DNA of 62,748 nt. It comes from a virus. The DNA lies in the IMG/VR virus record IMGVR_UViG_3300037096_000044, positions 1-62,748 of that record. One strand, given 5' to 3'. The position numbers and the translations under genes are program-made. This document shows positions 7,292 to 49,203 of the stretch, piece by piece. The stretch's first letter is position 1; each line of letters opens with the position of its first letter. Under the pieces are notes generated by a model, which saw nothing but the letters and a program-made list of their open reading frames with translations, was not told the DNA's origin and did not search any database.

Positions 7292-7296
7292 AGCGC

Positions 7297-7752: not shown

Positions 7753-7763
7753 ATTTCTTCCTT

Positions 7764-8640: not shown

Positions 8641-8641
8641 G

Positions 8642-10656: not shown

Positions 10657-10660
10657 GTTT

Positions 10661-11279: not shown

Positions 11280-11359
11280 CTCACCTGTGAGTTGTTAAAG
11301 GATACGCGGTGGGTTACAAGAGAGAGAAAGCCTTTAGCCGGTTTCTCCGATCAATACTA

Positions 11360-16337: not shown

Positions 16338-16345
16338 ATTCTACC

Positions 16346-17841: not shown

Positions 17842-18268
17842 TGCCGAACGGGTAATTGGACCCGGCGAAAGTTGGAGCCAGCATCAGCCCTTCGATACTT
17901 GATAATGGTTCCTTCGAATAAAGAACAAAGCTCGTCATCGGTTCGCCCGCGTTCGCTAGATCGCGGTCCGCCGTAAGGATTAAAGCGGCCAAACCATCGA
18001 GCGCCGCATTGCGCACCGGCAACGCAATGATGATCCACCATCCCGGCTGATAGGTATGGGTGACGACGTTCACCGTACCGATGCCGCCGGGACCGGTCGC
18101 AGGGGTTGTCGTGTCCTGCGCCGGATTCCAGACCTGCACGCCGGGGATGCAGACGTCGCCGCGCCAGGAGCCGGGATTGTCGTTCACGCCAGCACGCCAA
18201 TAAGCGCCAACAACCGGATCGGCTTGCGCGGTCGGCTGATCGGCGAAGCAAAACAGATAATCGATCAT
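17834..18268 (-). CDS. Hypothetical tail-module protein.
   Basis: The internal start MIDYLFCFADQ... overlaps the upstream stop. Confidence 0.4.
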   Translation of the reverse strand: MIDYLFCFADQPTAQADPVVGAYWRAGVNDNPGSWRGDVCIPGVQVWNPAQDTTTPATGPGGIGTVNVVTHTYQPGWWIIIALPVRNAALDGLAALILTADRDLANAGEPMTSFVLYSKEPLSSIEGLMLAPTFAGSNYPFGNA

Positions 18269-20205
18269 GGCGTACCGCTCGTCAGCGTTTGCAGTTGCGC
18301 GCCAGTTCCGGCAACCGGCCAGTAACCGACTTGCTTGATATGGCCGTACATACTGTTGGACCAAATCGGATCGCTGCCGCCCAAGGCAAATTCAGTGGGG
18401 GACGAAGGTGCCGTCGCTGACTTCGTATCGACAGTGCCTCCGGCCGCGACGTAGATCGCAGAAGTTCCATTCGAGGAAATTGCAGATTTCCTCGGGACGC
18501 CAGCAACAGGCGGCGATTGCCCGCTGTCGTTGTTCGAAAAGAGGGCGGTTGTTGCGGCTTCGACGCCTGCGATCAGGCTGGTGCTAAGGGTTGACGCACC
18601 TAAGATGATGCCGAACGAACCACCGGAGTTGCAGATGGCGACACTTCCAGCGCCACCGTTAGCCGCAGACAAATTATCGGCATCGACGTAAAGCGTTGAC
18701 GTGGTCGCATTGTACCAAGACGAAATCGGCGTTGCCGTCAGACTATCCGCCGCCCGCGTCGCGCTCCCCGCTGTAGTAAAAATTGGCGACGTGGCGAAGG
18801 CAAGCGCCTCCACCTGATATTGGTAGGCATAAAACCATGCTGTCGATCCGTTGCCAGTGATCGCTGCGGCAGCACCCCCGTTTGCCGCCGCCGACTGAAT
18901 GAAAAAATCGTCAGAAGACCCGGTTGGGGTGTAAGTATAGGTAAGCCGGAAAAATCCGTTCTGTGCCGGCGTAATAGTCCCACTCGCGCCGCTGCCCTGC
19001 GTGCCAACTGTCGCAGTCGAAAGATTATACCAAACGCTGCCCGGCGACCCCGATACTGCTTGGATTTTGAGCCACGGCGCAGTTAAACCGCCATACTTGA
19101 AATAAAGCGAAAAGGTGTTGGCTTTGTTGGCCGTTACCGGAACGGTAGATTGCTGCGTCCATGTGACCGTATTGCTGCCGCTGCTTGGGACAACCGCCCA
19201 AGCGCTCGTAGTGCCGTCCGGTCCTGACGCTGTCTGCGCGACGGTTGCATTGAAAAAATACCAATAGCCGGAATTGCTAAAGGTATTTGAATAGTACGAG
19301 GTGTTGGTGCTCGCCCCTTCGAGCAAAATGCCCTTCGGCAGCAGCGTGATCGGATCGTAGTCGAAGCGCAGCGCGCCGCTTGATGCCGACGCCAGCAAGC
19401 CGGACGAATTGGTGTAATACGCCGAAGACGAACGGGAGAATGTGACGCCTACTGCGGTGCACCACGCCGAGGAACCGGCGTAAACTGTACCATTGTATAA
19501 GTAATGATTGCTACCGCCCTCCGTGGTGAAATCCGCGAACATCAGTGGATTGGTACCGCCAATTTCGTAGGCATTATACCAGAGTGGCGGCGCAGTATTA
19601 ATAATATCAAGTTTCTCGGTTGTGAACTTAAGTGACTTAAGCTCCCAAAGCTCATACATGAACTTGGAGAAATCTGTTGTATCAGTATCGAACCGACACC
19701 CCCAATAATAATTTCCGGTCCATGTTAAAGCCACCCCATTAGCCGGGGCATATAAAAATGAAACATTACCAGAAGCGTTGATATTATAATCAACGCCCGC
19801 GACATAAGGAGTTCCGTTCCCGTAAAGTGTCGGAGTGCCATTAAGAAGGAAGACAGGTTCAATGAACCCGCCTTGGGTCCGAACAAGTTGAAAATATGTA
19901 CTTGTTCCATTACCAGTGCCAAAGGCTTGCGCCGTAACGGAATTATCATCCGGATCATTGTAAGCGAAAAGATTTGTCGGACCATTTAACTGTGATATGA
20001 AGCCAGAAAGTGTTTGCCATTCTAAATCGTTCGTGTCCGACCGGAGAAAGCTAAATTGAGCCTCGTAACTGTAGGTCGGATAAGTGAACAGTGAGAGCCG
20101 AATACGTTTCCCCGACAAAGCATCCTGTTTTACAGACGACCAATTTTGCGTCCGTTTAACCGGATACGTTATCCCGGCGAGGGTTGGGAAGACAGGAACG
20201 GTCAT
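18265..20205 (-). CDS. Distal tail protein-like (DUF2460/TIGR02217-like N-terminus, GTA g12-like) with a long C-terminal extension.
   Basis: N-terminus MTVPVFPTLAGITYPVKRTQNWSSVKQDALSGKRIRLSLF. It lies immediately after the tape measure gene. Confidence 0.55.
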   Translation of the reverse strand: MTVPVFPTLAGITYPVKRTQNWSSVKQDALSGKRIRLSLFTYPTYSYEAQFSFLRSDTNDLEWQTLSGFISQLNGPTNLFAYNDPDDNSVTAQAFGTGNGTSTYFQLVRTQGGFIEPVFLLNGTPTLYGNGTPYVAGVDYNINASGNVSFLYAPANGVALTWTGNYYWGCRFDTDTTDFSKFMYELWELKSLKFTTEKLDIINTAPPLWYNAYEIGGTNPLMFADFTTEGGSNHYLYNGTVYAGSSAWCTAVGVTFSRSSSAYYTNSSGLLASASSGALRFDYDPITLLPKGILLEGASTNTSYYSNTFSNSGYWYFFNATVAQTASGPDGTTSAWAVVPSSGSNTVTWTQQSTVPVTANKANTFSLYFKYGGLTAPWLKIQAVSGSPGSVWYNLSTATVGTQGSGASGTITPAQNGFFRLTYTYTPTGSSDDFFIQSAAANGGAAAAITGNGSTAWFYAYQYQVEALAFATSPIFTTAGSATRAADSLTATPISSWYNATTSTLYVDADNLSAANGGAGSVAICNSGGSFGIILGASTLSTSLIAGVEAATTALFSNNDSGQSPPVAGVPRKSAISSNGTSAIYVAAGGTVDTKSATAPSSPTEFALGGSDPIWSNSMYGHIKQVGYWPVAGTGAQLQTLTSGTP

Positions 20206-29879: not shown

Positions 29880-30275
29880 CTAGCCTCCGGGAATGATCAA
29901 CGGTTTACGCTTAGGCGTCAACAGCTGCTCTTTCTTCCATTGAAGTGCGTAAGAGTGATGAAGCTCTGCGCCCTTTCGCCGGGTGATCATCTGCTGGCCA
30001 TCGATCCAAGCTTCCACCGGAGTAACGACCATGACGCTAATAGTCTTCGGCTCCGATAAAGCGTCCGCCATCATAAGTAACCGGCCCGCTGCCGTCCGGG
30101 CTTGATGCGGGGTTAGAGCAGCCACCAGTTGGGTGCCTGGTACAATATCACCATTGGCTTTCGTTTCAAGTATTTCCGTTAACGCAATCGCCACACCACC
30201 TTCGTGCGGGATGATCTCAAACGCTACGTTACCGGGAAGTTCTGCTTCCGCGCCGTTTAGTTTTCCGTTGATCAT
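29880..30275 (-). CDS. Hypothetical protein.
   Basis: 131-aa ORF whose stop abuts the protease start. Confidence 0.45.
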   Translation of the reverse strand: MINGKLNGAEAELPGNVAFEIIPHEGGVAIALTEILETKANGDIVPGTQLVAALTPHQARTAAGRLLMMADALSEPKTISVMVVTPVEAWIDGQQMITRRKGAELHHSYALQWKKEQLLTPKRKPLIIPGG

Positions 30276-31674
30276 TGTCGTCGCCTTTCATCATCTTTAC
30301 GATAGCGAACTTCATCCGCTCAATCGGTTCGTCCCAATTGTTCGGATCAACCTGGTTAAACAACCGAACCGAACTGTACCAAGGCTCCGCGCCACGCGCC
30401 CACCGCCAGCAAGGATTGATCGGATTGAACATAAACGTCGGACGCCCGAGCGCTCCAGCGATATGTACCGCGACAGTATCGACCGTGATGATTAGGTCCA
30501 TCGTATCCATAACGTTCGCAGTGTCCGCGAAGTCCCGGATGCCATTCGTGGCGTCCACAATAAGGTTCTCGGCTCCGAACTTCACTAGCTCACTATTGAA
30601 CTCTCCAACTTGGAGCGAGTGGAGCTTAACGCCACGAAGCTCTCCGAGAGTTACAAGCGCCGGAAGCGGAACGGAACGCTGCCGCGATCTTTCGTAACCT
30701 GAAGATGCGGACCAAACTAGACCGATGTTAAATGTTGGAGAGGTCCTGCGGACGCCACGGGGCGACGGCCGCAGCGCCCGCAGGTACGGCCCGGCTGACG
30801 GCAAGTTACCGTAAGTCGAACCGATAAGTGGAAGGACCGAGATGAGAGGAGAGTGGTAATCCGCCTTCATCGCAACCTTCACAATTTGTCCGGGCTGATC
30901 GATGTCGATAATTTCATCAACCTCGCACCGCCCAGTAAGCAATCGGATTAGCTCGTTTGGCGATGCAAAAACAACCTTCGCCCTCGGCCATTTCTTTTTC
31001 AACTGCGGGATGAACCGGATGAATTGAACGCTATCACCGAAACCTTGCTCACGGTGAATGATGATCGTCTTATCGTTCAAGTCTTCACCGGTCCACCGCA
31101 CCACGCCGGTATCCCAAACCATTGACTTATTAAGCATCCCATTCCAGCGGACCTCGGAGAGCTTCAAACCTTCGAGAAGATCGCCCGACTTAAGGACCGT
31201 CAGCGCCAGATCGTGGCGAAGCGGAATATTGTCCGGCTTTAAATCGAGCGAGCGCCGGAGATGATGAGCACCTAACAATGGCTTTCCGACCGAATAATAA
31301 AGCAACCCCATATTGTGATGAAAGCCAGGGTGCTTATCGTTCAACTTCAAAGCTCGCAGCAACGCCACTTCCGCGTTCGGAAAATCCTGGACCCGCCACA
31401 GTGTATTCCCAAGATCATTCCACGCCTCCGCGTTCGAAGGATCGAGCGCCAAGGATTTACGCTGAAGCGCAGCGGAAGCTTCATAACGTCCAGAGCTATT
31501 GATTAGATTGCCGAGCTTGTGGTAAGCCTCGGCGCAGCCGGGGTCTGCATCGACCGCGCCGAGGAACATAGCTCTAGCATTATTCGCGTCTCCGGCCGCC
31601 ATGCGCTCGTTACCGAGCGCAACCATTCCGGAGGCGCGGGCCTTCGCTTCGTCATTCTTCATATTGCCGTGCAT
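30229..31674 (-). CDS. TPR-repeat protein fused to a GT-B (GT9/heptosyltransferase-like) glycosyltransferase domain.
   Basis: Several TPR units are present (AEAYHKLGNL..., AEAWNDLGNTL..., GFHHNMGLLYY...). These are followed by IIIHREQGFGDSVQFIRFIPQLKKKWP, a GT9-like G-x-G-D motif. Confidence 0.55.
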   Translation of the reverse strand: MHGNMKNDEAKARASGMVALGNERMAAGDANNARAMFLGAVDADPGCAEAYHKLGNLINSSGRYEASAALQRKSLALDPSNAEAWNDLGNTLWRVQDFPNAEVALLRALKLNDKHPGFHHNMGLLYYSVGKPLLGAHHLRRSLDLKPDNIPLRHDLALTVLKSGDLLEGLKLSEVRWNGMLNKSMVWDTGVVRWTGEDLNDKTIIIHREQGFGDSVQFIRFIPQLKKKWPRAKVVFASPNELIRLLTGRCEVDEIIDIDQPGQIVKVAMKADYHSPLISVLPLIGSTYGNLPSAGPYLRALRPSPRGVRRTSPTFNIGLVWSASSGYERSRQRSVPLPALVTLGELRGVKLHSLQVGEFNSELVKFGAENLIVDATNGIRDFADTANVMDTMDLIITVDTVAVHIAGALGRPTFMFNPINPCWRWARGAEPWYSSVRLFNQVDPNNWDEPIERMKFAIVKMMKGDDNDQRKTKRRGSRTSR

Positions 31675-31697
31675 TGTCGTCGCCTATTTTTGGAAGA

Positions 31698-32426
31698 TCA
31701 ACCCGGATAAATGTAACTGTAACCGAACGAGAGGCCGTGGGTGCCGTCCGGAACTGTGGTCGGGGTGATCAAGCCACTCGCCACCACGAGCGTGCCCACC
31801 GTCTCATCCGCAGGAACGGAAAGACCGAGCGTGCCAGCGGTCGGAGTGATCTTGGTTTCCTTCGTGACCGATAGGCTGGTGAAGCTCGTATCGAGCGGCA
31901 ACGCGAGAACGTTGTTGGTGCCGATCTGAATGACTTGTGCCGAACCGCCCGCCGCGCTCGCATAAATGGTTCCTGACGTAAGATGTTCGACACCTTTCGA
32001 AGTGTACTGGGTGGCAGACGTAACGGTGCCGGCGAAGTTGAAAATGTCCGTTTGCGTCGTACCATCGTTCGCGGTGTAAGTCAACCCGAGCGAACCGGCT
32101 GTGAGTGTGCCGGTCATGTTGAGAAGGACAGCCAACTGGCGCGGAACGTCCGGCTGAGCCGCGATGGTAAGCGTAGTCGGACCGGCCGATAGCGACGTGG
32201 ACGAAACGGTGACGGAAGGCGAAGACGCGGCCGGAGCGCCGGGCGTATTGTATGAGCGGTGCACCGTCGTGGCGAATTTAAAGCCGAGCTTGATAAAATC
32301 GTTCGCGTCGGCAGGGTTAATGGAAACTGTGCCATTGGATTGGACGAACACAGTCCCAGAGTTCATCGATTGCACCGATCCGCCAAACCCGGCAGGAGCG
32401 AACATCGTAACGTTTGCGAGAGCCAT
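31698..32426 (-). CDS. Ser/Thr/Gly-rich structural-type protein (decoration or fibre candidate, possible glycosylation substrate).
   Basis: 242 aa with runs such as SSPSVTVSSTSLSAGPTTLT. It is embedded between glycosyltransferase genes. Confidence 0.45.
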   Translation of the reverse strand: MALANVTMFAPAGFGGSVQSMNSGTVFVQSNGTVSINPADANDFIKLGFKFATTVHRSYNTPGAPAASSPSVTVSSTSLSAGPTTLTIAAQPDVPRQLAVLLNMTGTLTAGSLGLTYTANDGTTQTDIFNFAGTVTSATQYTSKGVEHLTSGTIYASAAGGSAQVIQIGTNNVLALPLDTSFTSLSVTKETKITPTAGTLGLSVPADETVGTLVVASGLITPTTVPDGTHGLSFGYSYIYPG

Positions 32427-32462
32427 TTTATTAGTTCCTCTTAGCTATGTCGCCTTGCGGAT

Positions 32463-33155
32463 TCAACGTGATCGTCTTTCCATCGCTTCCCGCATTTCGC
32501 GGTAGTGTCCCGACTTTAAGACGTACTCAGGAGCCTTCTTTACTCGTTCCTCAATCTCCTCATAACTAAGGATATAAGGCCAATTAAACATTCCGTGATA
32601 GCCAAACGTTTCCTCGATTGGATAAATCGCCACACGCTCGAAAGCGAAGCGCCCAGCTAACTCGGTCGAGGCCCAAGTAAAACCTTCCCGCTCTAAAACT
32701 GGCCGATAGACCCGACACAAGATTTCATCCTCTGGCAGCCGGACCGGAAAGCCGGTCCTATTTGCCGCGATGTAATCGAGCAACCGTTTAGAGCGAAGAG
32801 AAAAACCGCTATTGCCTACGTTGTTGTGGGTGTACCACCAAGGTGCACCGATGTAGTCGTAATCGAAAAATTCTTGGCGCCAAGCGCCGGGATTAACAAT
32901 CCATCCATCCCATTGAAAGAACAAGGCATGCTTGGTCTCAATATATTTCGGCAGTTCATAATTCGTGTACTGCGCGAATGCATCATAGTTCCGGAACGGC
33001 TCTATCGGGACAGTCTCTCTCCCAAAAGATTTGTCGGTGAATAGTTTTACATCCCCGAACCGAGCGTGTTTTAAACATTCGTCCGCCGCCGCTAACGCCA
33101 ACTCATGGCAATTGTCATAAACACTAACAAGCGTGACGTCAGATAGATCAAGCAT
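32463..33155 (-). CDS. DUF5672-like putative glycosyltransferase.
   Basis: The YDYIGAPWW...VGNSGFSLRSKRLL pattern matches the family as I recall it. Confidence 0.4.
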   Translation of the reverse strand: MLDLSDVTLVSVYDNCHELALAAADECLKHARFGDVKLFTDKSFGRETVPIEPFRNYDAFAQYTNYELPKYIETKHALFFQWDGWIVNPGAWRQEFFDYDYIGAPWWYTHNNVGNSGFSLRSKRLLDYIAANRTGFPVRLPEDEILCRVYRPVLEREGFTWASTELAGRFAFERVAIYPIEETFGYHGMFNWPYILSYEEIEERVKKAPEYVLKSGHYREMREAMERRSR

Positions 33156-33885
33156 CGGCCATTAACCGCGATGATAACCGATCCAACGAAAAATCTACAC
33201 CTGAGTTAACTTCGGCATAGCGTCTCAAATCCTTATAACGAAATGCCGATACCACGCCAGCGGTGACATAAGGATTAATGAAATTATCATCTCGGTTATC
33301 GTCCCTGTAGTCTCCGATCCAAACCACAGTCGGGATGCGCAACATAGCACTCATCGTCTTGAATGCGCTATCACTGCCAACGAACCCTGAACACTCCGCG
33401 ATGTGTGAAAGATTAACTGAGATGTCTTCATTACGAACGAGCCGAAGCCTCGGACTTTCTTTCAATCCGAATTGATCCAGTTCATCGACCGACCCGAACA
33501 GCAAGAAATTATATTGCGAAGCTTTCAATACGAGTCCGACTAGCACTCTCAGCGGAAGGGCCTTTGACGGGAAGCCAAAGCGCTTCTCAACACTGATCGA
33601 GTAGCCGGAGCCTCCGAGATGAACGCCAATGACCGGGCGTCTATCGGTGAAGATTGGGTCTTGTCTCGGAAACGGGTTATTGTTAAGGAATAAAGTCCGT
33701 GGGCAATTCTTCGCGCCTTTCAACCGGCCAAGTGATAGTTCCTCCACTGATATGCCGAGTGACCGGAAGAACTCCGGGATACAATCGTTATGCGAGGCGA
33801 CTAGGTAATCGTGTTCCGGGTGCGCCATCATAAATGGCAAGCACTGTAAGAAATCCCCAATGCCACCTTTAACCGCGACCCTCAC
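33148..33885 (-). CDS. GT9-like glycosyltransferase.
   Basis: Has MRVAVKGGIGDFLQCLPFM (G-x-G-D) and a later SDSAFKTMSAML block. Confidence 0.4.
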   Translation of the reverse strand: MRVAVKGGIGDFLQCLPFMMAHPEHDYLVASHNDCIPEFFRSLGISVEELSLGRLKGAKNCPRTLFLNNNPFPRQDPIFTDRRPVIGVHLGGSGYSISVEKRFGFPSKALPLRVLVGLVLKASQYNFLLFGSVDELDQFGLKESPRLRLVRNEDISVNLSHIAECSGFVGSDSAFKTMSAMLRIPTVVWIGDYRDDNRDDNFINPYVTAGVVSAFRYKDLRRYAEVNSGVDFSLDRLSSRLMADA

Positions 33886-34919
33886 GCTAGCGCCTCTTCT
33901 TCTTTGAACCTATCCAATAGCATCTCGCGGTGAGCGTCGATATTGCTCGGCATGCAATGCGTCAGCTGACCGCAATTGTGGCAAGGCAGCTTACTTTCAC
34001 GGCGCTTACCTTCAAGGTGCATACGCCGAAGATCATTCATCTTGTCCGAGTTCCAAATCTCCTTCAAAGATTGATTGTTGGCATTACCAATAATCAATCT
34101 TCGCTCCCAGTCCTGAAAGCAAGAGCTAACGAGGCCATCCGCATTTACTGCCATGCTATAGAAAATGTAAGAGCAAACATCGACCTCTTTGATTGGCTGA
34201 TTGTAAAGGCCGGTGGTGATCGTCGCTCCGGTGAAGCCTTCAATGTCAAACTCCGGCCAGCATGGCGCAAAGTTCTCGGCAAAGATGCGGTCGCAATGAT
34301 CGCCAAAAGTATCAAAGAAACGGGCACGGGCGTCCGCATCCAGCATCTCGTTCAAAGTCTTGATGACAATTTCACACTTGCCCTTATTCGCGTACAACCA
34401 TTTCACGTTCTCCACGAACCGGGCGAAGTCGAATTTGACACCGGTGAACTTCGCGTAAGTGGCTTCATCCATCCCATCGACCGATATGTTGATCCGATCT
34501 ATCCCGGCTTCGAGCACCGGCGCCAACCGTTCGGGAGTAATGAGCGAGCCATTCGTGGTGGTATCGATATAAGGAACGGAAGGAGAGAGCTTCGCATAAC
34601 GGATCATATCTGCTAGGCGCTTATTGAGAAACGGCTCGCCATCCTTATAGAGCCGCAAGACGCGGATGGGTTTGGGGAATTCCGAAAGGTCATCGATGAT
34701 CTTTTGGAATACCTCCAACTTCATCGCGCCGACGAAGCGCCCTGTGCCCGCGATTAAATCCGGATGGCCAGTCGGACAAAAGACGCACTTGAAATTGCAA
34801 GCGCTCGCCGGGTCCACGAAGAGAACGTAAGGTGTGGTCAACGGTATGACCGTCTCCAACAGAGTACGGTCTTCGAGATTGATGCGAGGCTTAAGCTGTG
34901 CTCTCATTTCTTTTCTCAA
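33882..34919 (-). CDS. Radical SAM enzyme with a SPASM-type C-terminal Cys cluster.
   Basis: SACNFKCVFCP matches CxxxCxxC. The C-terminal cysteines are CSYIF...SSCFQDW...PCHNCGQLTHC. Confidence 0.7.
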   Translation of the reverse strand: MRKEMRAQLKPRINLEDRTLLETVIPLTTPYVLFVDPASACNFKCVFCPTGHPDLIAGTGRFVGAMKLEVFQKIIDDLSEFPKPIRVLRLYKDGEPFLNKRLADMIRYAKLSPSVPYIDTTTNGSLITPERLAPVLEAGIDRINISVDGMDEATYAKFTGVKFDFARFVENVKWLYANKGKCEIVIKTLNEMLDADARARFFDTFGDHCDRIFAENFAPCWPEFDIEGFTGATITTGLYNQPIKEVDVCSYIFYSMAVNADGLVSSCFQDWERRLIIGNANNQSLKEIWNSDKMNDLRRMHLEGKRRESKLPCHNCGQLTHCMPSNIDAHREMLLDRFKEEEALA

Positions 34920-34942
34920 TGATATAAAAATATTGATTCATT

Positions 34943-36004
34943 TCACTCACCTCGTTCTTTTGGGATCGCAAAAACGACCGCGCCGCAACCGCAATAACAA
35001 TAAAGCCGAAACAAGAAACGGTAATCCCTTAAATTTTCCATCATCCATTCCGCCGCGCGCCACAGCCCGTCCGAATTGTGATAGACGCCCACCGCTAGGA
35101 TTGGCCGGTGCTGCGCTAAGGTTTCCGTCGCTCCGCGTAAGGCGTCGAACTCGCCACCCTCCAAGTGAGCCTTAATAAAGGTCGGAGCTTCATTTAGCTC
35201 ATCGATAGTTCTCACCCGCACTTTAGTACGGCCGCGCAAGTCCAGCTTCGCCGTCAAACCATCTCCGAACATTAAGCCAATTCCAGGGTGACGGCCTAAA
35301 GCATCGAAGATGATTGTCGCGCCGCTCAGGTTAGATTTCAGCTGCGCAAGGTTCGATACCATCGGCTCAATGGCGACGATCCGCGTTGAAGCTCCCATTA
35401 CCTCTCGCGCCTTAAGCGACGCAGCGCCGATATAAGCTCCGCAATCTAGGAAGACTTCGTGATCGTGTAAGACCGCGCGAACCTCGGGGATGAAGTAGCG
35501 ATCTTCAACCGGGATTAACGGAGCTTCCTTAAATGACCACTCTTCCCGAAGCCGACGCCAAGCAACAAATTGGGTATGATGAGCGCGGGAATAATGATCG
35601 TCCCATCGGTCCCAAACCTTAAAGACGCGGCGCTCATCACCTAGAGATAGATCGCCAGCGAACCAACCGTTGTTAAGCGGGTGACGGTCGGTGTAGCATT
35701 GCGCCAGATCATAGAACGGTACAACCTCTTCAAATCCTCTTCCGTGAAGAAGCTGCTCAATAGGCGCATAAGGCGAAGTAACAATAGCAACCGCGACCGG
35801 ATAACTATTTGAAACTTTCTCATCGCGCTCAAACCAAGAGACAGGTTCAATATTGAGCGTCTTAAAAAACTCCATCGCCAACCGGCCGAGATTACCACGC
35901 CCATAAAGGTGGACTGGTTGGTTGGTATAATCCTTCATCCTCGCTGCTGGCGACTTCGTCAATGCTAAATGTAACGCGGAGAAGGAACTCAAGACACCAG
36001 CCAC
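34943..36004 (-). CDS. FkbM-family methyltransferase.
   Basis: Contains VFLDCGAYIGAAS...VAIEP...IKAHLEGGEFDAL. Confidence 0.55.
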   Translation of the reverse strand: MAGVLSSFSALHLALTKSPAARMKDYTNQPVHLYGRGNLGRLAMEFFKTLNIEPVSWFERDEKVSNSYPVAVAIVTSPYAPIEQLLHGRGFEEVVPFYDLAQCYTDRHPLNNGWFAGDLSLGDERRVFKVWDRWDDHYSRAHHTQFVAWRRLREEWSFKEAPLIPVEDRYFIPEVRAVLHDHEVFLDCGAYIGAASLKAREVMGASTRIVAIEPMVSNLAQLKSNLSGATIIFDALGRHPGIGLMFGDGLTAKLDLRGRTKVRVRTIDELNEAPTFIKAHLEGGEFDALRGATETLAQHRPILAVGVYHNSDGLWRAAEWMMENLRDYRFLFRLYCYCGCGAVVFAIPKERGE

Positions 36005-36981
36005 TCGCGGTTATCGAGATACCACCGGACCGTCTTCTCCAGCGATACCTCGAATGATAGCGGAAGCGACCAACCGAGACTTGCAAGCTTCGAGCCATCG
36101 AGCGCATAGCGCAGATCGTGGCCCGGTCGCGAAGAGTGGAAGTCCACCATAACATAGTTCAAATCTTTACCAACAAATCTAGCAACCATCTGCGCTAGTG
36201 CTAGATTGTCAACCTCTTTCTCTCCGACGATATTGAACGTCTCGCCAATGGTGCCTTTAGTCGCGACGAAGTTCAACGCGGCGGCAGCATTACGAGCGTG
36301 GATATAGAAGCGGCTACCGGGAACGGTGAGCGACTTATCAGCGTGAATGGTAACTCGCTCTCCGCGCAGCACTCGCGAAATAATCATCGGAACAAACTTT
36401 TCCGGGTGCTGCCGTTCTCCAAAAACGTTCATCGTGTGAACGATCTTTATTGGTAAGCCGTAGGTGTTACCAAACGAGACGACTAGCTGCTCGGCTCCGG
36501 CCTTCGTCGCCGCGTAAGGATTACAAGCGTTGTACGGGGCATGTTCCTTATGGAAGACGCCCGGAGCGGCCGGACCAAAAACCTCATCGGTGGAAAAGTA
36601 GATAAATTGTTCAAGCCCCAAGCCGCGAATTGCGCGCGCATAATCGAGCAGGTTACAAGTTGCCACCACGTTATCATAAACGAACGAGAGCGGATCAGCA
36701 ATCGAACGGTCCACGTGCGTCGCCGCAGCGAGATGATAGACGCGATTAAAATGACCAAGCTGCGAAGCAACGATTGAATTAATCGGCGCTCTTAGATCGT
36801 GATAGACGAACTTGGTCCGCTTCCGGTGAGTTTCCCATCCTCTTATCTGAGCGATACGGTTGAGGTTGCCGGAGGTATCGAGCTTGTCGAGGAAAATGAT
36901 TTCATCATCGGAGGTTCGCAGTATATGTTCCGCGACGCCAGCCCCGATGAAACCCGCGCCGCCCGTGAGGAGTATTCTCAT
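35989..36981 (-). CDS. NDP-sugar 4,6-dehydratase (RmlB-like extended SDR).
   Basis: Contains MRILLTGGAGFIG, STDEVFG and YAATKAGAEQL (YxxxK). Confidence 0.7.
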   Translation of the reverse strand: MRILLTGGAGFIGAGVAEHILRTSDDEIIFLDKLDTSGNLNRIAQIRGWETHRKRTKFVYHDLRAPINSIVASQLGHFNRVYHLAAATHVDRSIADPLSFVYDNVVATCNLLDYARAIRGLGLEQFIYFSTDEVFGPAAPGVFHKEHAPYNACNPYAATKAGAEQLVVSFGNTYGLPIKIVHTMNVFGERQHPEKFVPMIISRVLRGERVTIHADKSLTVPGSRFYIHARNAAAALNFVATKGTIGETFNIVGEKEVDNLALAQMVARFVGKDLNYVMVDFHSSRPGHDLRYALDGSKLASLGWSLPLSFEVSLEKTVRWYLDNREWLVS

Positions 36982-37103
36982 TTGTGTCGTCGCCTTTCGT
37001 TGGTAGAATAATTATCACCGCATCTTCGTCAGGGAAGCGGCGAACGGCGTCAGCGCTCGTACTCTTAAAGCGCCGGGTAATATCAGGAAAGCGAATTACG
37101 TTC

Positions 37104-37868
37104 TCATTCATCTTCGACTACCGGGCTGATAGCGCACTCGCAGTTTGGGTGCGCTGGAGGGGCATCGTCGCCGCTATCGAAATCATCGTCCAAGTCGATT
37201 GGCCCTTGGTCATTATTAGCGACGCAAATCTCGCAAGGCTCAGGGCCGAGCAGCCATTCCTTCTTTAGATTGACGCCCGCTTCACTCTTCGCCGCGCGAT
37301 AACCCGCCATGGCGCCAGTTGAGTTTGAGTGGCTAATCTCCGTCCGGGCGATAAGGTCAGCGCGGTCTTCCGAGAATGCGAACTGATCCGATAGTCCCTC
37401 GGCAATCTGATCTAGACCAATATTCCGCTCAAGCCCATCCACGATAGCTGATCGAAGCATATTCTTTGTTGCTGCATCAATGTTGGTAACGAGTTCGGCA
37501 GCTTGGTCCTCCGCTGCTTTAACCGCGCGCCGGTTAACGAGGTTGGTAATCTTTTCATCGTCCGATAGTCCGACCGTTGATAGAGCTTCCGCGCTCGCAT
37601 CCTCAATGGCGCCTTGAAAATCATCCGTCAACTCCGCGAAGCCGACTAGGGTGGAGAGGTCTAAGCTATCCACGATTTGGTCGGGCTGCTTCTTCGCTTT
37701 CGCGACCTTATCAGAATGAACGAGTTGGTGGGTGATCGAGTGGAGGGCCTTCGTTAAGATCGCGTGGGCCTTAGACTTGACGATGCCTTGAGCGCGGGCA
37801 ACGGTCGCCCTCTCCATTGAGACATGCCTCAAGCGCCGATAAGCCTTCGCGAAAGGGTGCGCCGGCAA
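37104..37868 (-). CDS. Head morphogenesis protein (Mu F / SPP1 gp7-like). The start is uncertain (alternative ATG at 37817).
   Basis: C-terminal PPAHPNCECAISP signature. The gene follows the portal gene and overlaps its 3' end. Confidence 0.6.
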   Translation of the reverse strand: MPAHPFAKAYRRLRHVSMERATVARAQGIVKSKAHAILTKALHSITHQLVHSDKVAKAKKQPDQIVDSLDLSTLVGFAELTDDFQGAIEDASAEALSTVGLSDDEKITNLVNRRAVKAAEDQAAELVTNIDAATKNMLRSAIVDGLERNIGLDQIAEGLSDQFAFSEDRADLIARTEISHSNSTGAMAGYRAAKSEAGVNLKKEWLLGPEPCEICVANNDQGPIDLDDDFDSGDDAPPAHPNCECAISPVVEDE

Positions 37869-42308: not shown

Positions 42309-42857
42309 TCAGGCCGAGCAAGACACCAAATTATGAAGCGGAATATTCACTGGAACTTTTTGACCAAGAAGCTCGTACAAAACTCGTTCGCACTGGCTCG
42401 TTCCGGCGCCATCATAAAGGCCATACAAACCTTCTTGCGCCATCGGACCATGTTTTGCAAAAACCTTCTCGCCCATTTTGAACGGGAGCGGTTCAGGAAG
42501 AACAACCAAACCACCTTGCTCGCGTGCTTTCAATTTTTGAATGAAGGTGACAGCGAGTTGCGCTGGTTGTTCTTCCAAATCCACTTCCCTTTCCGAGAAG
42601 TCATTATTGAGACGGCTTCCACTTGTCATCAACACACCATTAATCCCAATCGTGGTCAAGATCGAATACCAGTGATCAACCACAAACACGAATATGTAGC
42701 GCGGGAAGAGCGCTCGCCGGAAACCTTGTAAGCTCCCGCGCACTACACGTTTCGCTTTTATGAATGGACAATAAACTTCGAATGACTGGCGCGCGAGATT
42801 TGTTATAGCTTTCATCTCGCCCAACGGTTCGGTTTGAGCCACCGCCCAGTATGACAT
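42309..42857 (-). CDS. NusG/RfaH-like transcription elongation/antitermination factor, the first gene of the late operon.
   Basis: The NGN pattern is SYWAVAQTEPLGEMKA...RGSLQGFRRALFPRYIFVFV...INGV. The KOW-like region is FKMGEKVFAKHGPMAQEGLYGLY. Confidence 0.7.
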   Translation of the reverse strand: MSYWAVAQTEPLGEMKAITNLARQSFEVYCPFIKAKRVVRGSLQGFRRALFPRYIFVFVVDHWYSILTTIGINGVLMTSGSRLNNDFSEREVDLEEQPAQLAVTFIQKLKAREQGGLVVLPEPLPFKMGEKVFAKHGPMAQEGLYGLYDGAGTSQCERVLYELLGQKVPVNIPLHNLVSCSA

Positions 42858-43573: not shown

Positions 43574-44815
43574 CTAGCGCCTGGGCCCAGCGACGCGATG
43601 ATTGCGCGCGGAAGCTCTCAGGCGCGTCACGGCGCGTTCAAGCTGTTGGTCATAGTCATCGGCCCACGCAACGGCGGCTTGTTCCTTATGCTCTACGATG
43701 GCCTGTCCGATGGCGCACCCGAGCGCGGCCGGCACCGCATTCCCTATCTGCATGTACTGAGAACTCATTGAGCCGCTGAATTTCCAGTCCGGCGCGAAGC
43801 CTTGAATGGCCGCGCATTCACGGACTGATAACGGTCTGACGACTTCGGGATGGCACAGTGCGCTCCCCTTGCGATTGGCGCGTCCGGTGATCGTCGGGGC
43901 CGGACGATTCCATGCGAGCCGACGATAAAATCCGGTCTTGCCGCCGCCCGCCGCGAAGGAACCGCCCATAGCCTTGCGTTGAAGTTTTCGCGGCAGCGAA
44001 CGCCAATTGCCGCCTTCCGGAACAAGCGCAAAATATTGTTCCACGTCCGGCGTATATTTTGCGCCTTTGCCGGGACGGCGTCGAAACTTCCAGATTTCAT
44101 CTTTCAGCACTCGGTAAGGCAGGAGCGCCGATGGACCATGCGTCGCCGACGGCAGTACAGGCGGCGAAAAATCGCGGGCACCAATCATCACAAACCGGAG
44201 ACGGTGTTGGGCCGCGCCGTAATCCGCAGCATCAAACACGCCGAAGGTCACGAAATATCCGAGGCCGCGAATGTCGGCGAGGATTTGGCGTACTGCCGAT
44301 CCCGACAATTCGTCCTCACTCAGCGGAGCATGATCTTCGTCGCCGCTGAGCCAAGAATGATCGTAAGTCTTAAGGCTCCAATGCTGACCCGGACGCTCGG
44401 AAATTGGCCGGTGACGGAGTGCGGCTGTCGTCAGATTAGCCACGTTTTCAAGGACAAAGCGGCGCGGTCTGACTTCGCCGATTAGGCGAAGATACTCATA
44501 GATCAAATTGCCGCGAGGATCGGTTAGGGCCGCCCGTTTGCCGCCGGGCGAAAAACTCTGGCATGGCGGGCCGCCGACCATCAAATCGACTTCGCCTTTG
44601 AAGCCACGGGCTTTGCGCAGCTTGTCGGCGTCAAGGCTCGCGATGCTGTCGCTGATAAGCTGGACGGACGGTCTGTTCAGCCGGATCGTTTCGCAGCAAT
44701 CGAAATCAATCTCATTCACGAGCGTCGGGAATATCCCGGCCTTCTCTAGTCCGAGATCGAGACCAAGCGCCCCTGAGAAAAACGACCAAACCTCTGGTTT
44801 TTTCGCGCGTGCCAT
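43574..44815 (-). CDS. dcm: DNA (cytosine-5) methyltransferase.
   Basis: Motifs are FSGALGLDLG (I), GGPPCQSFS (IV), LENV (VI), AQHRLRF (VIII) and GNAVP (X). Confidence 0.9.
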   Translation of the reverse strand: MARAKKPEVWSFFSGALGLDLGLEKAGIFPTLVNEIDFDCCETIRLNRPSVQLISDSIASLDADKLRKARGFKGEVDLMVGGPPCQSFSPGGKRAALTDPRGNLIYEYLRLIGEVRPRRFVLENVANLTTAALRHRPISERPGQHWSLKTYDHSWLSGDEDHAPLSEDELSGSAVRQILADIRGLGYFVTFGVFDAADYGAAQHRLRFVMIGARDFSPPVLPSATHGPSALLPYRVLKDEIWKFRRRPGKGAKYTPDVEQYFALVPEGGNWRSLPRKLQRKAMGGSFAAGGGKTGFYRRLAWNRPAPTITGRANRKGSALCHPEVVRPLSVRECAAIQGFAPDWKFSGSMSSQYMQIGNAVPAALGCAIGQAIVEHKEQAAVAWADDYDQQLERAVTRLRASARNHRVAGPRR

Positions 44816-45748: not shown

Positions 45749-48019
45749 CTATAGCTTCCACTCCTGCGCTAGTTTCTCTACATCGATGGGCCGCATGTCC
45801 TTACTAAGCTCCATGGGCAACCGCCTCGATAGCTCTGCGGAAGAACAGATTAGCCGGGCTGGTGATCCTCGCGTCCCCCATTTCTCAATCGAGACTTTGT
45901 GATCGCCGACGAACCACTCTTGCGACTTCGCGATCTTACGCACCGTTAAAGGTTTCTCTAGCCGGTCATTGTGCCGGCCATCATAGAGATGGTTCTTGAT
46001 CAGTCTAATCAAATCCGTATCTAAAAGTAGAACCCCGCCGTTGGCTGGGTTCCACTTTCCGTTTTGCCACGGAGCCTTACAAACCCGCTCCGCGAACTTC
46101 GGATCGCCCGCCATTTCCTCCCGTAGCCGGTTAAGGAAGTTCGAAACCAGAACTTGGCCCGGCGAATACCCTTCCTCGATAACCTGGCGTTTCAACACCG
46201 ACCAAGGCGCATCGTCCCCGCGAATGACAGGACCAACCTTCTTAACGAACTCCTCCGCCCAAGCTTTTATAATCCCCAATCCGCCTTCCTCTTCGAGCCA
46301 CAAATTGAACTTTGTCCAATACGCCGGGTTTTTCTTCTCGTCAGTTACTTTGGGCACGAACCACCGTCGATCATCGACCGACAACTGTATGGCCCGCATC
46401 GAGTTCGAACAAGCGAATACATGCATCCAGTTTTCCATCTCGTAATTGTCAAGGTATTTCTTTTTAACGGTAACAAATTTGTCGGTGATAATTGATTTGA
46501 GCTTATTGTAAGCCTTAGCACTGTGACCGGCGTAGATTTCATGCACGACGGCCAACCGTTTGTGGGCCAGCCAATAATTAAAATCGCTATCAACAATCTC
46601 GCTCTCGGACGGGAAAGAGACATTCCACTCTCCTAGGATTGGCGTTAGGATTTTCTCGCCCAGCGTCGATTTACCGACACCTTGGACTTCCGAGATTAAA
46701 AGCACCCCATAGGTGATTTTAGTCTCAGGTAGAGCTATCAGCGTAGCACACCACCTCATAAGCTCAGTGCGGTCTTTCTCATCGGGTATTAAGTGCTCCA
46801 TGAAATCGAGAAACGGCCTAGCTTCCCCTTTTTCCGATTTCACATTGGACGGACAATGCGTATTGATAAACCGTCCACCGTCCTTCGAGCTATAGATGCC
46901 TTTCTCCATAGCTGGGGAATATTTAATGATGGCGCTTTTCGAAGCTGCATCCTTCCGGACCAGCCTAGCAGTATCGTCCGCGTCCGAATACGGCGCGACG
47001 GTCGAATTGAATTGTTTCTCGTTCAAAAGATTTGAGGGGAAGTCCTTGTGGATATACACCTCTGGCCGGACGGAGTGGTACCATTCCTCGCGGAACGCTT
47101 GCGTCAGCTTTTGGATTGGACGGCCGGTGCCGGCCGGGTTCGGTATAAGCTCGGTGGCTCGGGTAGCGAGCACAATGAGCTTTTCAATCTTAGGTCCAAT
47201 ATATCGTCCGCTTTTCGTAAAAAGCGAACGCGGCACATCGTCCGCAAGGTCCCAGCTTAATCCAAAACGCGGATCGAACATTATCCCTTTAACCGCCATC
47301 CCAAAATTCTTCGAGAACTCCTGTAACACCGCTTTCCCGGCCCAATCGTTATCACAAACATAGATGAACTCGGTTCCGCCGCTAGATCGTAACTCCGGAT
47401 AGTCGGCACGGTGAGGCGCTAGCGCTCCGCCAATCATGCCCCAGTGTTCATATAGAGTTAGGAAATCTCCGAATGGGTGATCTTTTAACTCTTTCTTGCG
47501 CTTCGGATCGTTGACCAACCCGTCCACGAATGCTGCGCTTTTGGCGCCTTCATGCACCATTACGCGCGAAACAAGCGAGCGCTTGTCTCGCGGTTTCCAA
47601 AAGGGAAGCGACCTATCCGGCTCCATCCTTCTCCACTCGCCATCCGACCAAAACGACCACGGCACATACGCCTTCCGATCTACTAGCCGTTCTTGGACCA
47701 TGATCAGTCCGCCTTCGCGCCGGTCCCAAAATTCATATAAAGCTCCTCTTCCAACTTTTGGGAGGAGGGCCTTTATATTCTTCGCGTTAATTGATTTGGG
47801 GAAATCCGCTTTCGCCAATTCGCCTTTGATACTTTCGACTTCTTCCTTAGTAGGCGCGAACTCCTTATTGGAGCACGAAATCGTCCCATCTGAGGCGATC
47901 TTAATAAGTGCTCGCTCGGTATAGTAATTGCCGCGATGGACTTTCACCATGTAGCGGCGGAAGTTCAATTCCTCCGCGCCGACGCGGGCAATATAAGTGT
48001 TAAGCTTCGGTGTTTTCAT
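45749..48019 (-). CDS. Primase-helicase (Toprim-like domain plus SF3/D5-P4-type P-loop helicase).
   Basis: VMVHEGAKSA and FIYVCDNDWAGK give the Toprim E and DxD residues. Walker A is SEVQGVGKSTLGEKI. Confidence 0.7.
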   Translation of the reverse strand: MKTPKLNTYIARVGAEELNFRRYMVKVHRGNYYTERALIKIASDGTISCSNKEFAPTKEEVESIKGELAKADFPKSINAKNIKALLPKVGRGALYEFWDRREGGLIMVQERLVDRKAYVPWSFWSDGEWRRMEPDRSLPFWKPRDKRSLVSRVMVHEGAKSAAFVDGLVNDPKRKKELKDHPFGDFLTLYEHWGMIGGALAPHRADYPELRSSGGTEFIYVCDNDWAGKAVLQEFSKNFGMAVKGIMFDPRFGLSWDLADDVPRSLFTKSGRYIGPKIEKLIVLATRATELIPNPAGTGRPIQKLTQAFREEWYHSVRPEVYIHKDFPSNLLNEKQFNSTVAPYSDADDTARLVRKDAASKSAIIKYSPAMEKGIYSSKDGGRFINTHCPSNVKSEKGEARPFLDFMEHLIPDEKDRTELMRWCATLIALPETKITYGVLLISEVQGVGKSTLGEKILTPILGEWNVSFPSESEIVDSDFNYWLAHKRLAVVHEIYAGHSAKAYNKLKSIITDKFVTVKKKYLDNYEMENWMHVFACSNSMRAIQLSVDDRRWFVPKVTDEKKNPAYWTKFNLWLEEEGGLGIIKAWAEEFVKKVGPVIRGDDAPWSVLKRQVIEEGYSPGQVLVSNFLNRLREEMAGDPKFAERVCKAPWQNGKWNPANGGVLLLDTDLIRLIKNHLYDGRHNDRLEKPLTVRKIAKSQEWFVGDHKVSIEKWGTRGSPARLICSSAELSRRLPMELSKDMRPIDVEKLAQEWKL

Positions 48020-48452
48020 TGACCTTCTCTTTTATCATTTCAATCATTGCTGCGAGTTGTGGGTCGTCCTTTATCGCTTCTTCAATTTTTCTTTGTCCGT
48101 GTAAAACGGTCGCGTGGTGAAATCCTCCGAGTGCGGTCGCAATTTGGTTAAGGGAATAGTCGCCTTTCGCAATGAACATTACAACTTGTCTCGGCACAAC
48201 AATGTTTTGGGTATGTAGCCGCGACGTTACCCAAGCTCCCGGTATCCCGAAACTTTCAGCCACAGCGCGGATAATCTGTTTTATCTTCTTCTCGCGTGGT
48301 GCGGCAGCATAACTGTAATTGATGACGACTTCATCGGCCTTGACGCTTTGATTGATTGCCGGAGTATAAGTCCCTTTTGGCGACGGAGCGCTATTGAGGC
48401 GCTTCATCCGTTCTAAGTGTTCGCGGTGGAGCGTTCGGAGGTAGGACACCAA
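48000..48452 (-). CDS. DnaA domain IV-like helix-turn-helix protein.
   Basis: RQVVMFIAKGDYSLNQIATALGGFHHATVLHGQRKIE matches the DnaA C-terminal pattern (...HsTVlha..ki). Confidence 0.55.
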   Translation of the reverse strand: MVSYLRTLHREHLERMKRLNSAPSPKGTYTPAINQSVKADEVVINYSYAAAPREKKIKQIIRAVAESFGIPGAWVTSRLHTQNIVVPRQVVMFIAKGDYSLNQIATALGGFHHATVLHGQRKIEEAIKDDPQLAAMIEMIKEKVNENTEA

Positions 48453-48594
48453 TTACCCTCGGGCGGCGGCAACGAGGTTATTTTCGCCTTTCCCCGAAGT
48501 CAAGGAAAGGGTTTTTCCGGGCTAAAAGATAATCCTTTTATTGACTAGCGTTTCGGCGGAGACTAGCCTTCGGACGGGAAAAAGGAGAGCACCG

Positions 48595-49203
48595 ATGCCC
48601 CATCCTAACGCGGACGTTGCCGCTGCCATAGCTGGTAGCGCGAAGAGCAAACCCAACCCCGATAAGTTGCAAGAACTCCAGCGCGAAGCGGCCCGCGCCC
48701 GCGATCTAGAGCGCGAGATTGTAGATGCCGAAGAGCACCTATCATCTCTTAAAGAGAAACTTCAAAAGCTTTACTTTACCACTCTCCCCGATCTGATGGC
48801 CGAAGTGAAGCTAGACTATATCGGCGTTCCCCCGCGCGGCAACTTGCCGGGCGTCGATTATAAGCTCACCCCTTTCTATGCGGCAAATATCGCGGCGGCA
48901 TGGCCAGTTGAAAAGCGGGAGGCCGCTTTTTCACTCCTAAAACGGCTTCACGCTGAGTCATTGATTAAGACGGAGGTTAGTGCGGCGTTGCCGAAGGGCA
49001 ATTTAGCGACCGCCAAGAAGCTCGTGGCTGCCGCTAAGAAGCTCGGTGTTACCGCCGACCTAACACTGTCCGTTCACTCGGGCACACTTAAAGCTTGGCT
49101 CCGCGACCTCTATGAAAAGGGCAAGGCTCTTTCGAAATCCGACCTCGAAAAGATTGGCGGCTCGGTCGGCCGTGTCGTCCGCCCCGAGGAGCGCAAGACA
49201 TGA
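48595..49203 (+). CDS. Hypothetical protein with an N-terminal coiled coil.
   Basis: The ATG follows aaaaggagagcaccg. The track start at 48541 is a TTG extension. Confidence 0.5.
   Translation: MPHPNADVAAAIAGSAKSKPNPDKLQELQREAARARDLEREIVDAEEHLSSLKEKLQKLYFTTLPDLMAEVKLDYIGVPPRGNLPGVDYKLTPFYAANIAAAWPVEKREAAFSLLKRLHAESLIKTEVSAALPKGNLATAKKLVAAAKKLGVTADLTLSVHSGTLKAWLRDLYEKGKALSKSDLEKIGGSVGRVVRPEERKT

Follow-up and report, generated by a model that had tools for sequence, protein, structure and literature searches.

Glycosylation of virus particles by virus-encoded enzymes is already known from chloroviruses and, as cited in PMC12582341 and PMC11256854, from mycobacteriophages. To our knowledge, phage enzymes have been shown experimentally to glycosylate the phage particle only in mycobacteriophages, with the chloroviruses as the case among eukaryotic viruses. 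Freeman and colleagues, in Cell Host Microbe in 2023, reportedly found that mycobacteriophage glycosyltransferases (GTs) glycosylate capsid and tail-tube subunits and that the glycans alter antibody recognition. In the chlorovirus PBCV-1, a virus-encoded 4,6-dehydratase, glycosyltransferases, and methyltransferases make methylated 6-deoxy sugars on the capsid protein (PMC5408694, PMC9614988). In the bacterial FlmG flagellin glycosyltransferases of Caulobacter crescentus and Brevundimonas subvibrioides, experiments showed that a tetratricopeptide repeat (TPR) domain binds the acceptor and a GT-B domain sets the sugar donor (PMC7591256; bioRxiv 10.1101/2022.03.25.485807); the GT-B domain can be swapped to reprogram the sugar, and chimeric FlmG has been made (bioRxiv 10.1101/2022.03.25.485807). 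Here, we analyzed IMG/VR record IMGVR_UViG_3300037096_000044 (hereafter the window), a complete metagenomic contig of 62,748 bp from a phage known from metagenome contigs only, in which an island of sugar and GT genes lies within the head module.

We propose, with moderate confidence, that a FlmG-like TPR enzyme encoded in the island holds a phage head protein, most likely the 242-amino acid (aa) protein p242, while its GT domain O-glycosylates it, and that the other transferases lengthen the glycan by adding a sugar derived from a 6-deoxyhexose and probably methylated. As judged from its genes, the island would be a virion-protein glycosylation cassette consisting of a conserved core (p242, the TPR-fused transferase TPR-GT9, and usually the small protein p131) and a variable periphery.

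An earlier annotation made from the letters of this DNA (the sequence-only reading) had placed a sugar and GT island between the MuF/portal genes and the prohead protease gene. This arrangement was confirmed by family matches of the flanking genes (Table 1), and an independent sequencing run had assembled 21.4 kb, including the whole island, at 100% identity (contig L098), so the island is not a chimera. Coordinates refer to the whole window; the island (36981-29880) and the flanking head genes all lie on the minus strand and are read from high to low numbers. Eight co-oriented genes were found in the island, as tightly packed as had been described, with spacing between neighbors ranging from a 47-nucleotide (nt) overlap to a 122-nt gap. 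These eight are solid; the ninth gene counted earlier, a 68-aa open reading frame (ORF), is probably not a gene, as it matched nothing in the family libraries, tblastn against related loci found no counterpart, and the gene caller had not predicted it on the 100% identical contig.

By major capsid protein (MCP), the nearest cultured phages were Polewnik and Strzyga of Brevundimonas (35% identity), with the Polewnik MCP aligning to the window MCP over 93% of its length. The head modules of both run from a portal-MuF fusion through protease/scaffold to MCP with the island absent, and the island is therefore an insertion relative to known cultured relatives. The window MCP shared 26% identity with major capsid proteins annotated in Arthrobacter phages and 60-88% with those of contigs that carry the cassette. 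The island gave zero matches by megablast against 50,697 phage records.

The core of the cassette was delineated by comparing 26 contexts: the window, contigs found by protein look-ups, and 17 assessable IMG/VR loci. A p242 homologue adjoined the TPR-GT9 gene in 23 of the 26, the start of TPR-GT9 usually lying <300 nt past the p242 stop codon; among the assessable IMG/VR loci, TPR-GT9 was directly downstream of p242 in 14 of 17. The 242-aa protein had earlier been listed as Ser/Thr-rich, one of nine genes unrelated to canonical head assembly. It proved instead to be the partner that is conserved with the TPR-GT in the core, and both p242 and p131 are probably not unrelated to head assembly. 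TPR-GT homologues (30-53% identity) occupied the head modules of other phage-like contigs, between the packaging and protease/MCP genes, and p242 and the TPR-GT stayed together in at least two different arrangements of the packaging module. The minimal form, found in contig L014 (portal-p228-TPR-GT-p121-p78-protease-MCP), contains zero sugar genes and keeps both partners, and p242 and the TPR-GT are for this reason taken as the core. In three further loci (L096, L117, L118; order p242-portal-MuF), a p242 homologue was present without any GT. p242 thus has its own head-module role, which is what one would expect for an acceptor and not for an enzyme subunit. The third, less constant member, p131, had no family match, and a search of the PDB with it was empty. 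Its homologues were found at the same position in L013 (48% identity), L008 (35%), and L009 (32%), and the slot was filled by ORFs of similar size (121-133 aa) in L012 and L014.

Natural fusions and gene exchange were seen around this core. In the 744-aa protein P0008 (L010), residues 21-273 correspond to the 245-aa GT domain encoded separately in the island and stand N-terminal to the TPR-GT, and in protein P0002, a DUF5672 domain stands in front of the TPR-GT9. Together, the two fusions connect the three putative transferases through a single TPR scaffold. A DUF5672 gene followed the TPR-GT in L103 and L110-L116 and was also present in L009, L010, and L013. The sugar-tailoring genes are shuffled among phages with MCPs 77-88% identical. 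For example, L013 shared 88% identity with the window in its MCP, 60% in p242, and 53% in the TPR-GT, and carried a dehydratase homologue (56% identical) at the same position, but its tailoring genes differed. The radical SAM, FkbM, and DUF5672 genes of the window were closest to their counterparts in L009 (64% identity for radical SAM and 49% for FkbM), the MCP of which was 77% identical. The radical SAM gene belongs to the variable periphery, being found in the window and L009 only.

The properties of p242 were assessed via its composition, predicted fold, and relatives. Ser and Thr together made up 27% of the protein (Thr 14%, Ala 14%, Gly 10%, Val 10%, charged residues ~8%), 21 positions were conserved as Ser/Thr, and the Cys content of the family was 0.3%. 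This composition fits an exposed structural protein. The AlphaFold2 model was a folded all-beta protein (predicted local distance difference test score, pLDDT, 94.5), and p242 as modeled is not a disordered mucin-like stretch. We found ~100 homologues, all metagenomic. No Pfam or PHROG family matched p242, its family profile returned nothing from the PDB, and tblastn against 50,697 deposited phage genomes gave zero matches, with no cultured phage among the carriers; the best matches in the viral structure library BFVD were uncharacterised proteins of uncultured phages. Weak Foldseek matches to XepA, a cupin, infectious bursal disease virus VP2, and a tail-needle-knob were dropped as uninformative (TM ~0.2). 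A role for p242 as an RmlC-like cupin sugar epimerase was likewise rejected, as it has no conserved His and is found in modules without sugar genes and without any GT.

The C-terminal domain of p242 (~residues 55-240) was detected in other phage proteins by the family hidden Markov model (E 1e-18 to 1e-36), as standalone proteins of 190-215 aa or as tandem copies. Such relatives were encoded immediately upstream of the major head protein gene in L126, which is the position of lambda gpD, immediately downstream of it in L120, and one gene away from it in L125 and L130. The adjoining MCPs belonged to three PHROG families (phrog_752, 1328, and 267), and the wider superfamily of the domain had no Pfam or PHROG model. 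The domain, with the motif IAAQPDxPR, was also seen in further phage lineages, in tandem or within Thr/Ala-rich proteins of 380-556 aa (L125 6710-8380; L119, L123, L133). The GC content at third codon positions was 0.68 for p242, close to that of the MCP (0.72) and scaffold-like (0.70) genes, versus 0.52-0.63 for the island enzymes. The cultured relatives without the cassette (Polewnik type) were also without p242, and this absence fits a decoration protein, as does the head-module position. Fold, composition, MCP-adjacent relatives, and MCP-like third-position GC content point to p242 being a capsid-associated, decoration-like protein of an undescribed family, one that would bind the capsid. 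It is also the most likely acceptor of the TPR-GT.

TPR-GT9 has the architecture of the FlmG class: an N-terminal TPR region and a C-terminal GT-B-like domain in one polypeptide, without a transmembrane segment. Multiple Pfam TPR matches covered the N-terminal region, which also matched the TPRs of OGT in the PDB. The earlier assignment of two GT9-like transferases, one of them TPR-fused, was upheld by different kinds of evidence: a weak PF01075 (GT9) match and annotated homologues for TPR-GT9, and predicted fold for the 245-aa protein. Many of the 2251 TPR-GT9 homologues carry a precomputed PF01075 annotation; TPR-GT9 itself also had weak matches to heptosyltransferase NCBIfam models, and the motifs EQGxGD and DTAxxHLAGAxG were invariant. 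Scanning IMG/VR for peptide patterns of the GT domain gave no match. Fusion to TPRs argues for a protein as the acceptor. In bacteria, this GT-domain family is a large one (at least 592 loci). One member, in Azospira oryzae (L041), is encoded immediately upstream of a pair of flagellin genes, and no flagellar context was found for the Burkholderia homologue that was checked. The window contains no flagellin-like gene, so TPR-GT9 is not a flagellin transferase; Pse and Leg genes are lacking as well. By analogy, TPR-GT9 may nevertheless be FlmG-like in its working.

The 245-aa protein, as modeled, is a GT-B enzyme with the GT9 heptosyltransferase fold. Direct matches in Pfam, NCBIfam, and PHROG were lacking, searches of the PDB by single sequence and by profile found nothing, and BLASTP against the TPR-GT was not significant. 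Among the members of its family (152 homologues), 7 of 48 weakly matched DUF354 and 6 of 48 weakly matched GT9 (best E 6.6e-4). Alignment of its profile with the TPR-GT domain by hhalign gave an E of 2e-4, with the C-terminal D-S-A-x-K-T aligned with D-T-A-x-x-H. Its AlphaFold2 model (pLDDT 95.9) had WaaF (1psw, E 1.9e-7, TM 0.58), 3tov, TibC, and WaaC as top Foldseek matches; this GT9-fold match by predicted structure concerns the 245-aa protein only. No heptose-pathway genes were found in the island. For the third candidate, the DUF5672 protein, the family named by the sequence-only reading stood (Table 1), but the transferase label is only putative: profile searches of the PDB found no relative, and none of the 398 homologues had an informative name. 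Its DxD-like DYDY and GT-A-like motifs were read by eye from the alignment only. A cytochrome-b5-domain match in the PDB was rejected as spurious. The DUF5672 protein is possibly a second glycan-extending transferase.

The similarity of the 245-aa protein to WaaC and WaaF raises the question of whether the cassette acts on the host. GT9 enzymes are lipopolysaccharide (LPS) heptosyltransferases, RmlB-like enzymes feed O-antigen synthesis, the TPR-GT family has flagellin-adjacent bacterial members, and the phage is of alphaproteobacterial type, as are the FlmG users Caulobacter and Brevundimonas. Modification of a host structure (LPS core, O-antigen, flagellin, or pilin), which would block superinfection or progeny re-adsorption to lysing cells, is nonetheless improbable. 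Zero transmembrane-like segments were found among the island proteins, and the island encodes no flippase, polymerase, or GtrA/B-type components; the cassette is embedded in the late head operon rather than placed close to a lysogeny module, and shows tight linkage to a head-module protein specific to phages. TibC, also matched by the 245-aa GT, is a heptosyltransferase that modifies protein, and the flagellin option lacks a flagellin-like gene in the window. The earlier preference for a virion protein over the host surface as the target is favored by the head-module contexts, the p242 linkage, the TPR domain, and the lack of a membrane segment; the attachment itself is what we infer from them.

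Profile and fold searches reassigned none of the island enzymes to a non-glycosyl function, and the three sugar-tailoring assignments made earlier held. The dehydratase contained the catalytic motifs GxxGxxG, STDEV, and YxxxK, in addition to its family matches (Table 1), and scored 259.6 bits against TIGR01181 (RmlB), below the equivalog cut-off of 365.1. The safe call for 36981-35989 is thus a putative nucleoside diphosphate (NDP)-hexose 4,6-dehydratase-like extended short-chain dehydrogenase/reductase (SDR), with the nucleotide left unspecified. The FkbM-family methyltransferase scored above the cut-offs of both PF05050 (41.6 vs. 22.7 bits) and TIGR01444 (49.7 vs. 37.7), and would act by sugar O-methylation; the ATG at 35938 is the start called on the 100% identical contig. 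A methylated 6-deoxyhexose is a reasonable inference from an RmlB-like enzyme and an FkbM methyltransferase, as far as gene content can tell. The radical SAM/SPASM enzyme fits nowhere in this scheme. It scored 69.3 bits against PF04055 (cut-off 29.5) and 55.6 bits against PF13186 (cut-off 21.5), with the motifs CxxxCxxC and C-x12-G-x4-C ... CxxCx5C.

This enzyme is the basis for a further alternative, in which it matures a ribosomal peptide or protein (the 68-aa ORF or p242), part of the island then being akin to systems for ribosomally synthesized and post-translationally modified peptides (RiPPs). SPASM enzymes are mostly peptide or protein maturases, and the NCBIfam models matched were maturase families. 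However, every NCBIfam equivalog was below its own cut-off, and no subfamily model was reached; the closest relative in the PDB was the carbohydrate-oxidizing BtrN (E 4e-14 over the auxiliary-cluster domain), the gene sits beside methyltransferases in the variable periphery, and the p242 family is almost free of Cys. The 68-aa ORF was rejected as a RiPP precursor, being neither conserved nor called on the identical contig. We regard this alternative as barely plausible.

Under the preferred reading, glycosylation of a head protein, cytoplasmic p242 would be captured by the TPR domain at a late stage of infection, either ahead of head assembly or while it proceeds, and the GT9-like GT-B domain would put the first sugar on surface Ser/Thr residues of p242. 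The RmlB-like dehydratase would convert host NDP-hexose to NDP-4-keto-6-deoxyhexose; the pathway must start from the host sugar nucleotide because the island lacks a nucleotidyltransferase. The radical SAM/SPASM and FkbM enzymes would tailor the sugar or the glycan, and the 245-aa GT9-fold transferase, possibly with the DUF5672 protein, would lengthen the glycan on the same acceptor. Swapping of peripheral genes between close phages would result in differing glycans on a conserved protein scaffold. Any benefit might lie in shielding, stability, or adsorption.

Several points weigh against this proposal. The sugar pathway is incomplete as annotated, with no nucleotidyltransferase and no recognizable 4-ketoreductase, epimerase, or aminotransferase, and the earlier description of a self-contained pathway does not hold. 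The radical SAM/SPASM enzyme could act on protein, not sugar. TPR-GT9 scored 19.4 bits against PF01075, under the cut-off of 22, and matched profile positions 174-205 only. Flagellin genes adjoined just two of the 80 best bacterial GT-domain loci (of at least 592). A Foldseek search of the PDB with p242 gave nothing at E < 1e-3, and thus no structural match to a known decoration protein. Both the glycan and the presence of p242 in virions are predictions from gene content. Likewise, co-transcription of the island with the head genes is presumed from gene spacing and the lack of terminator enrichment (neither promoter-like nor terminator-like sites were in excess over shuffled sequence around the island).

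The choice of acceptor was weighed separately. The MCP is itself 17.6% Ser/Thr and might serve as acceptor in place of p242 or next to it, and in L012, a second TPR-GT lies directly after the MCP gene. Another virion protein (the MCP or a tail protein) might then be glycosylated, with p242 serving as a target-presenting adaptor, a chaperone, or a glycan-binding, lectin-like capsid protein. This leading alternative we consider unlikely, though not negligible. Weak carbohydrate-binding-module-like Foldseek matches would suit p242 as such an accessory, the mycobacteriophage acceptors are reportedly capsid and tail-tube subunits, and the podovirus MW202512 combines an MCP, a TPR-GT, FkbM, and a GalT-like protein without a detected p242. 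On the other hand, the same MCP family exists without the cassette in Polewnik, and no cassette-specific MCP feature was evident; it is p242, with its conserved Ser/Thr positions, that travels with the TPR-GT through different packaging modules. We retain p242 as the acceptor in the proposed scheme.

Table 1. Coordinates of the island genes and flanking head genes in the window.
Feature	Coordinates	Strand	Length (aa)	Matches and remarks
TerL	41786-40239	-		
Portal	39507-37771	-		PF04860, 59.6 bits
MuF-like minor head protein	37868-37104	-		PF04233, 39.4 bits
68-aa ORF (probably not a gene)	36905-37111	-	68	Overlaps dehydratase start by 77 nt; located at the 122-nt MuF-dehydratase spacer
RmlB-like NDP-hexose 4,6-dehydratase-like SDR	35989-36981	-	330	PF16363, E 5.7e-46; PF01370, E 1.8e-43
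FkbM-family methyltransferase	34943-36004	-	353 or 331	353 aa from GTG start; 331 aa from ATG at 35938
Radical SAM/SPASM (twitch-like) enzyme	33882-34919	-	341-345	PF04055 and PF13186
Compact GT-B glycosyltransferase, GT9 (heptosyltransferase) fold	33148-33885	-	245	By predicted structure
DUF5672 protein	32463-33155	-	230	PF18922, 61.4 bits (cut-off 24.4)
p242, proposed acceptor	31698-32426	-	242	Predicted all-beta; Thr/Ala/Gly/Ser-rich
TPR-GT9, putative protein O-glycosyltransferase	30229-31674	-	481	TPR at ~residues 10-165; GT9-like GT-B domain at ~166-470
p131	29880-30275	-	131	Conserved small protein between TPR-GT and prohead protease
Prohead protease fusion	29879-28176	-		PF04586; phrog_80 head maturation protease
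Scaffold-like ORF	28234-27407	-		
MCP	27345-25705	-		35% identical to Brevundimonas phage proteins

The gene content of the window is that of a siphophage of the alphaproteobacterial kind. Genes at 51069-51824 (+), 48000-48452 (-), and 42309-42857 (-) encode a cell-cycle regulator similar to GcrA, a protein with the C-terminal domain of DnaA, and a NusG-like protein, and the tail module (12390-20205, -) resembles those of gene transfer agents and phiJL001 (Rcc01698-like, DUF2460, BR0599, Gp84_N). All of them indicate a host among the alphaproteobacteria, in keeping with the relatedness to Brevundimonas phages. Just downstream of the gene for a 1315-aa host-specificity-like tail protein lies a gene for a 182-aa protein (11845-12393, -) that matches Mtd_N (E 1.9e-12), the N-terminal domain of the major tropism determinant. 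An adjacent gene pair at 48541-50202 (+), Pam3 gp33-like (DUF7307) and Pam3 gp34-like, is located on the strand opposite to the structural genes, at the start of the early/replication region. No integrase was found among the larger ORFs of the window, which were those scanned against Pfam.

The window also encodes DNA polymerase III alpha, ThyX (55143-55994), and two C-5 cytosine DNA methylases, one full-length (413 aa; 43574-44815, -) and one short (222 aa; 51982-52650, +). Phage GTs that decorate DNA are known (bioRxiv 10.1101/2023.12.21.572611, PMC13326640), and given the methylases and ThyX, the transferases of the island might be imagined to sugar-hypermodify phage DNA (e.g., at hydroxymethylated bases) against restriction. 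This is very unlikely: TET/5mYOX or hydroxymethylase genes numbered zero among the ORFs scanned, the cassette is inside the head operon far from the DNA-metabolism genes, and a TPR acceptor domain with a beta-protein partner would have no role in DNA modification.

Contigs related to the window had further features of their own. The 79.5-kb contig L012 carries its two TPR-GT paralogues at 412-1833 and 10001-11398; a TPR-GT in the usual place precedes a 133-aa ORF and a 1214-aa protein containing NUDIX and ChaB. The two paralogues suggest more than one acceptor in some phages. In the metagenomic podovirus MW202512.1 (L100) from Manatee Spring, the region 6505-11732 encodes an MCP, two small ORFs, a TPR protein, an endonuclease, FkbM, and a GalT-like protein. 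The C-terminus of the TPR protein was 26% identical to the GT domain of the window, no p242 homologue was detected, and the locus has the look of a p242-less analogue, a glycosylation cassette within a structural module. Domains of Acb1, the anti-CBASS (cyclic-oligonucleotide-based antiphage signaling system) phosphodiesterase (PF23474), were found in the head modules of L009 (11662-12723), L010 (13789-14097), and L096 (13151-15814), one within an 887-aa protein and one directly after the portal gene. L096, one of the contigs with a GT-less p242, has an aspartyl/asparaginyl beta-hydroxylase-like gene (PF05118; 1342-2520), which would be another phage protein-modifying enzyme. The portal was fused to an InPase domain (PF18823) in L014 (7453-9969) and L015 (6066-8462), and in L014, a pectate-lyase-like beta-helix protein is encoded between TerL and portal. 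In L008, a tyrosine integrase gene (1036-1986) lies close upstream of the two terminase genes, small and large, and some cassette-bearing members of the clade may thus be temperate.

More tentatively, we see in these contigs a large environmental phage clade, probably with alphaproteobacterial hosts, that would possess a portable glyco-decoration module: a dedicated glycoprotein of the capsid surface with an undescribed fold, a FlmG-like TPR-GT to which further transferases are sometimes fused, and a fast-exchanged sugar cassette, together resulting in a strain-variable, O-antigen-like glycan coat. If so, no such module would have been seen before in phages with Gram-negative hosts, nor any that includes a dedicated acceptor protein, and virion glycosylation would extend to phages of Gram-negative (alphaproteobacterial-type) hosts. 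A function would be given to three uncharacterised families (p242, the compact 245-aa GT9-fold proteins, and DUF5672), and the modular design of acceptor, TPR-guided transferase, and exchangeable sugar genes could be reprogrammed in the manner of chimeric FlmG. Phage surfaces would then diversify their glycans, with consequences for adsorption, stability, defense evasion, and phage engineering.

In the literature, we found no report with a TPR-GT9 FlmG-like enzyme, a dedicated and widely conserved acceptor-like head protein, fusions of further transferases to the TPR scaffold, and a shuffled sugar cassette in the head operon of Gram-negative-type phages. The described systems each share some of the properties of the island. 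Like the island, the mycobacteriophage systems involve phage-encoded GTs, with the phage's own structural proteins as targets and a glycan coat on the particle as the outcome (both proposed for the island), but the hosts are Actinobacteria and the acceptors are reportedly capsid and tail-tube subunits, with no dedicated acceptor protein known. We know of no TPR-GT9, p242 family, or dehydratase/radical SAM/FkbM cassette in a mycobacteriophage head operon. PBCV-1 combines sugar-nucleotide enzymes, GTs, and methyltransferases as the island does, and works independently of the host glycosylation machinery. It is, however, a eukaryotic giant virus with atypical N-linked glycans on its MCP, unrelated enzyme families, and scattered genes. 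The gtrABC/O-acetylase serotype-conversion loci of temperate phages are another case of phage-borne sugar modification. Whereas these are membrane-embedded, act on periplasmic O-antigen, and lie beside the integration module, the island enzymes are soluble and have late-operon genes with linkage to that of a head protein.

Two bacterial systems resemble the island at the level of its transferases. The TibC/AAH autotransporter heptosyltransferases (PDB 4rap, 4rb4) are GT9-like GT-B enzymes that modify a folded, beta-rich protein in the cytoplasm by O-glycosylation at many Ser residues, and TibC ranked high in the structural search with the 245-aa protein. Unlike the much smaller 245-aa protein, TibC is dodecameric, iron-binding, ~400 aa long, and uses ADP-heptose as donor, and the island has no heptose pathway. 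FlmG and TPR-GT9 are alike in being soluble, in combining TPR with GT-B, in their dedicated sugar-nucleotide genes, and in their alphaproteobacterial setting. The FlmG acceptor is a Ser/Thr-rich structural subunit, flagellin, and the likely acceptor of TPR-GT9 is a Ser/Thr-rich all-beta phage protein; FlmG acts in the cytoplasm before its acceptor is assembled into an extracellular structure, and the same is proposed for TPR-GT9. The donor pathway differs, being RmlB-like (6-deoxyhexose type) for TPR-GT9 versus pseudaminic/legionaminic acid for FlmG, and the island has extra transferases (the 245-aa GT9-fold protein and DUF5672) that are sometimes fused to the same TPR scaffold. In contrast to FlmG, TPR-GT9 is phage-encoded and located in a head module, and the likeness between the two is one of architecture.

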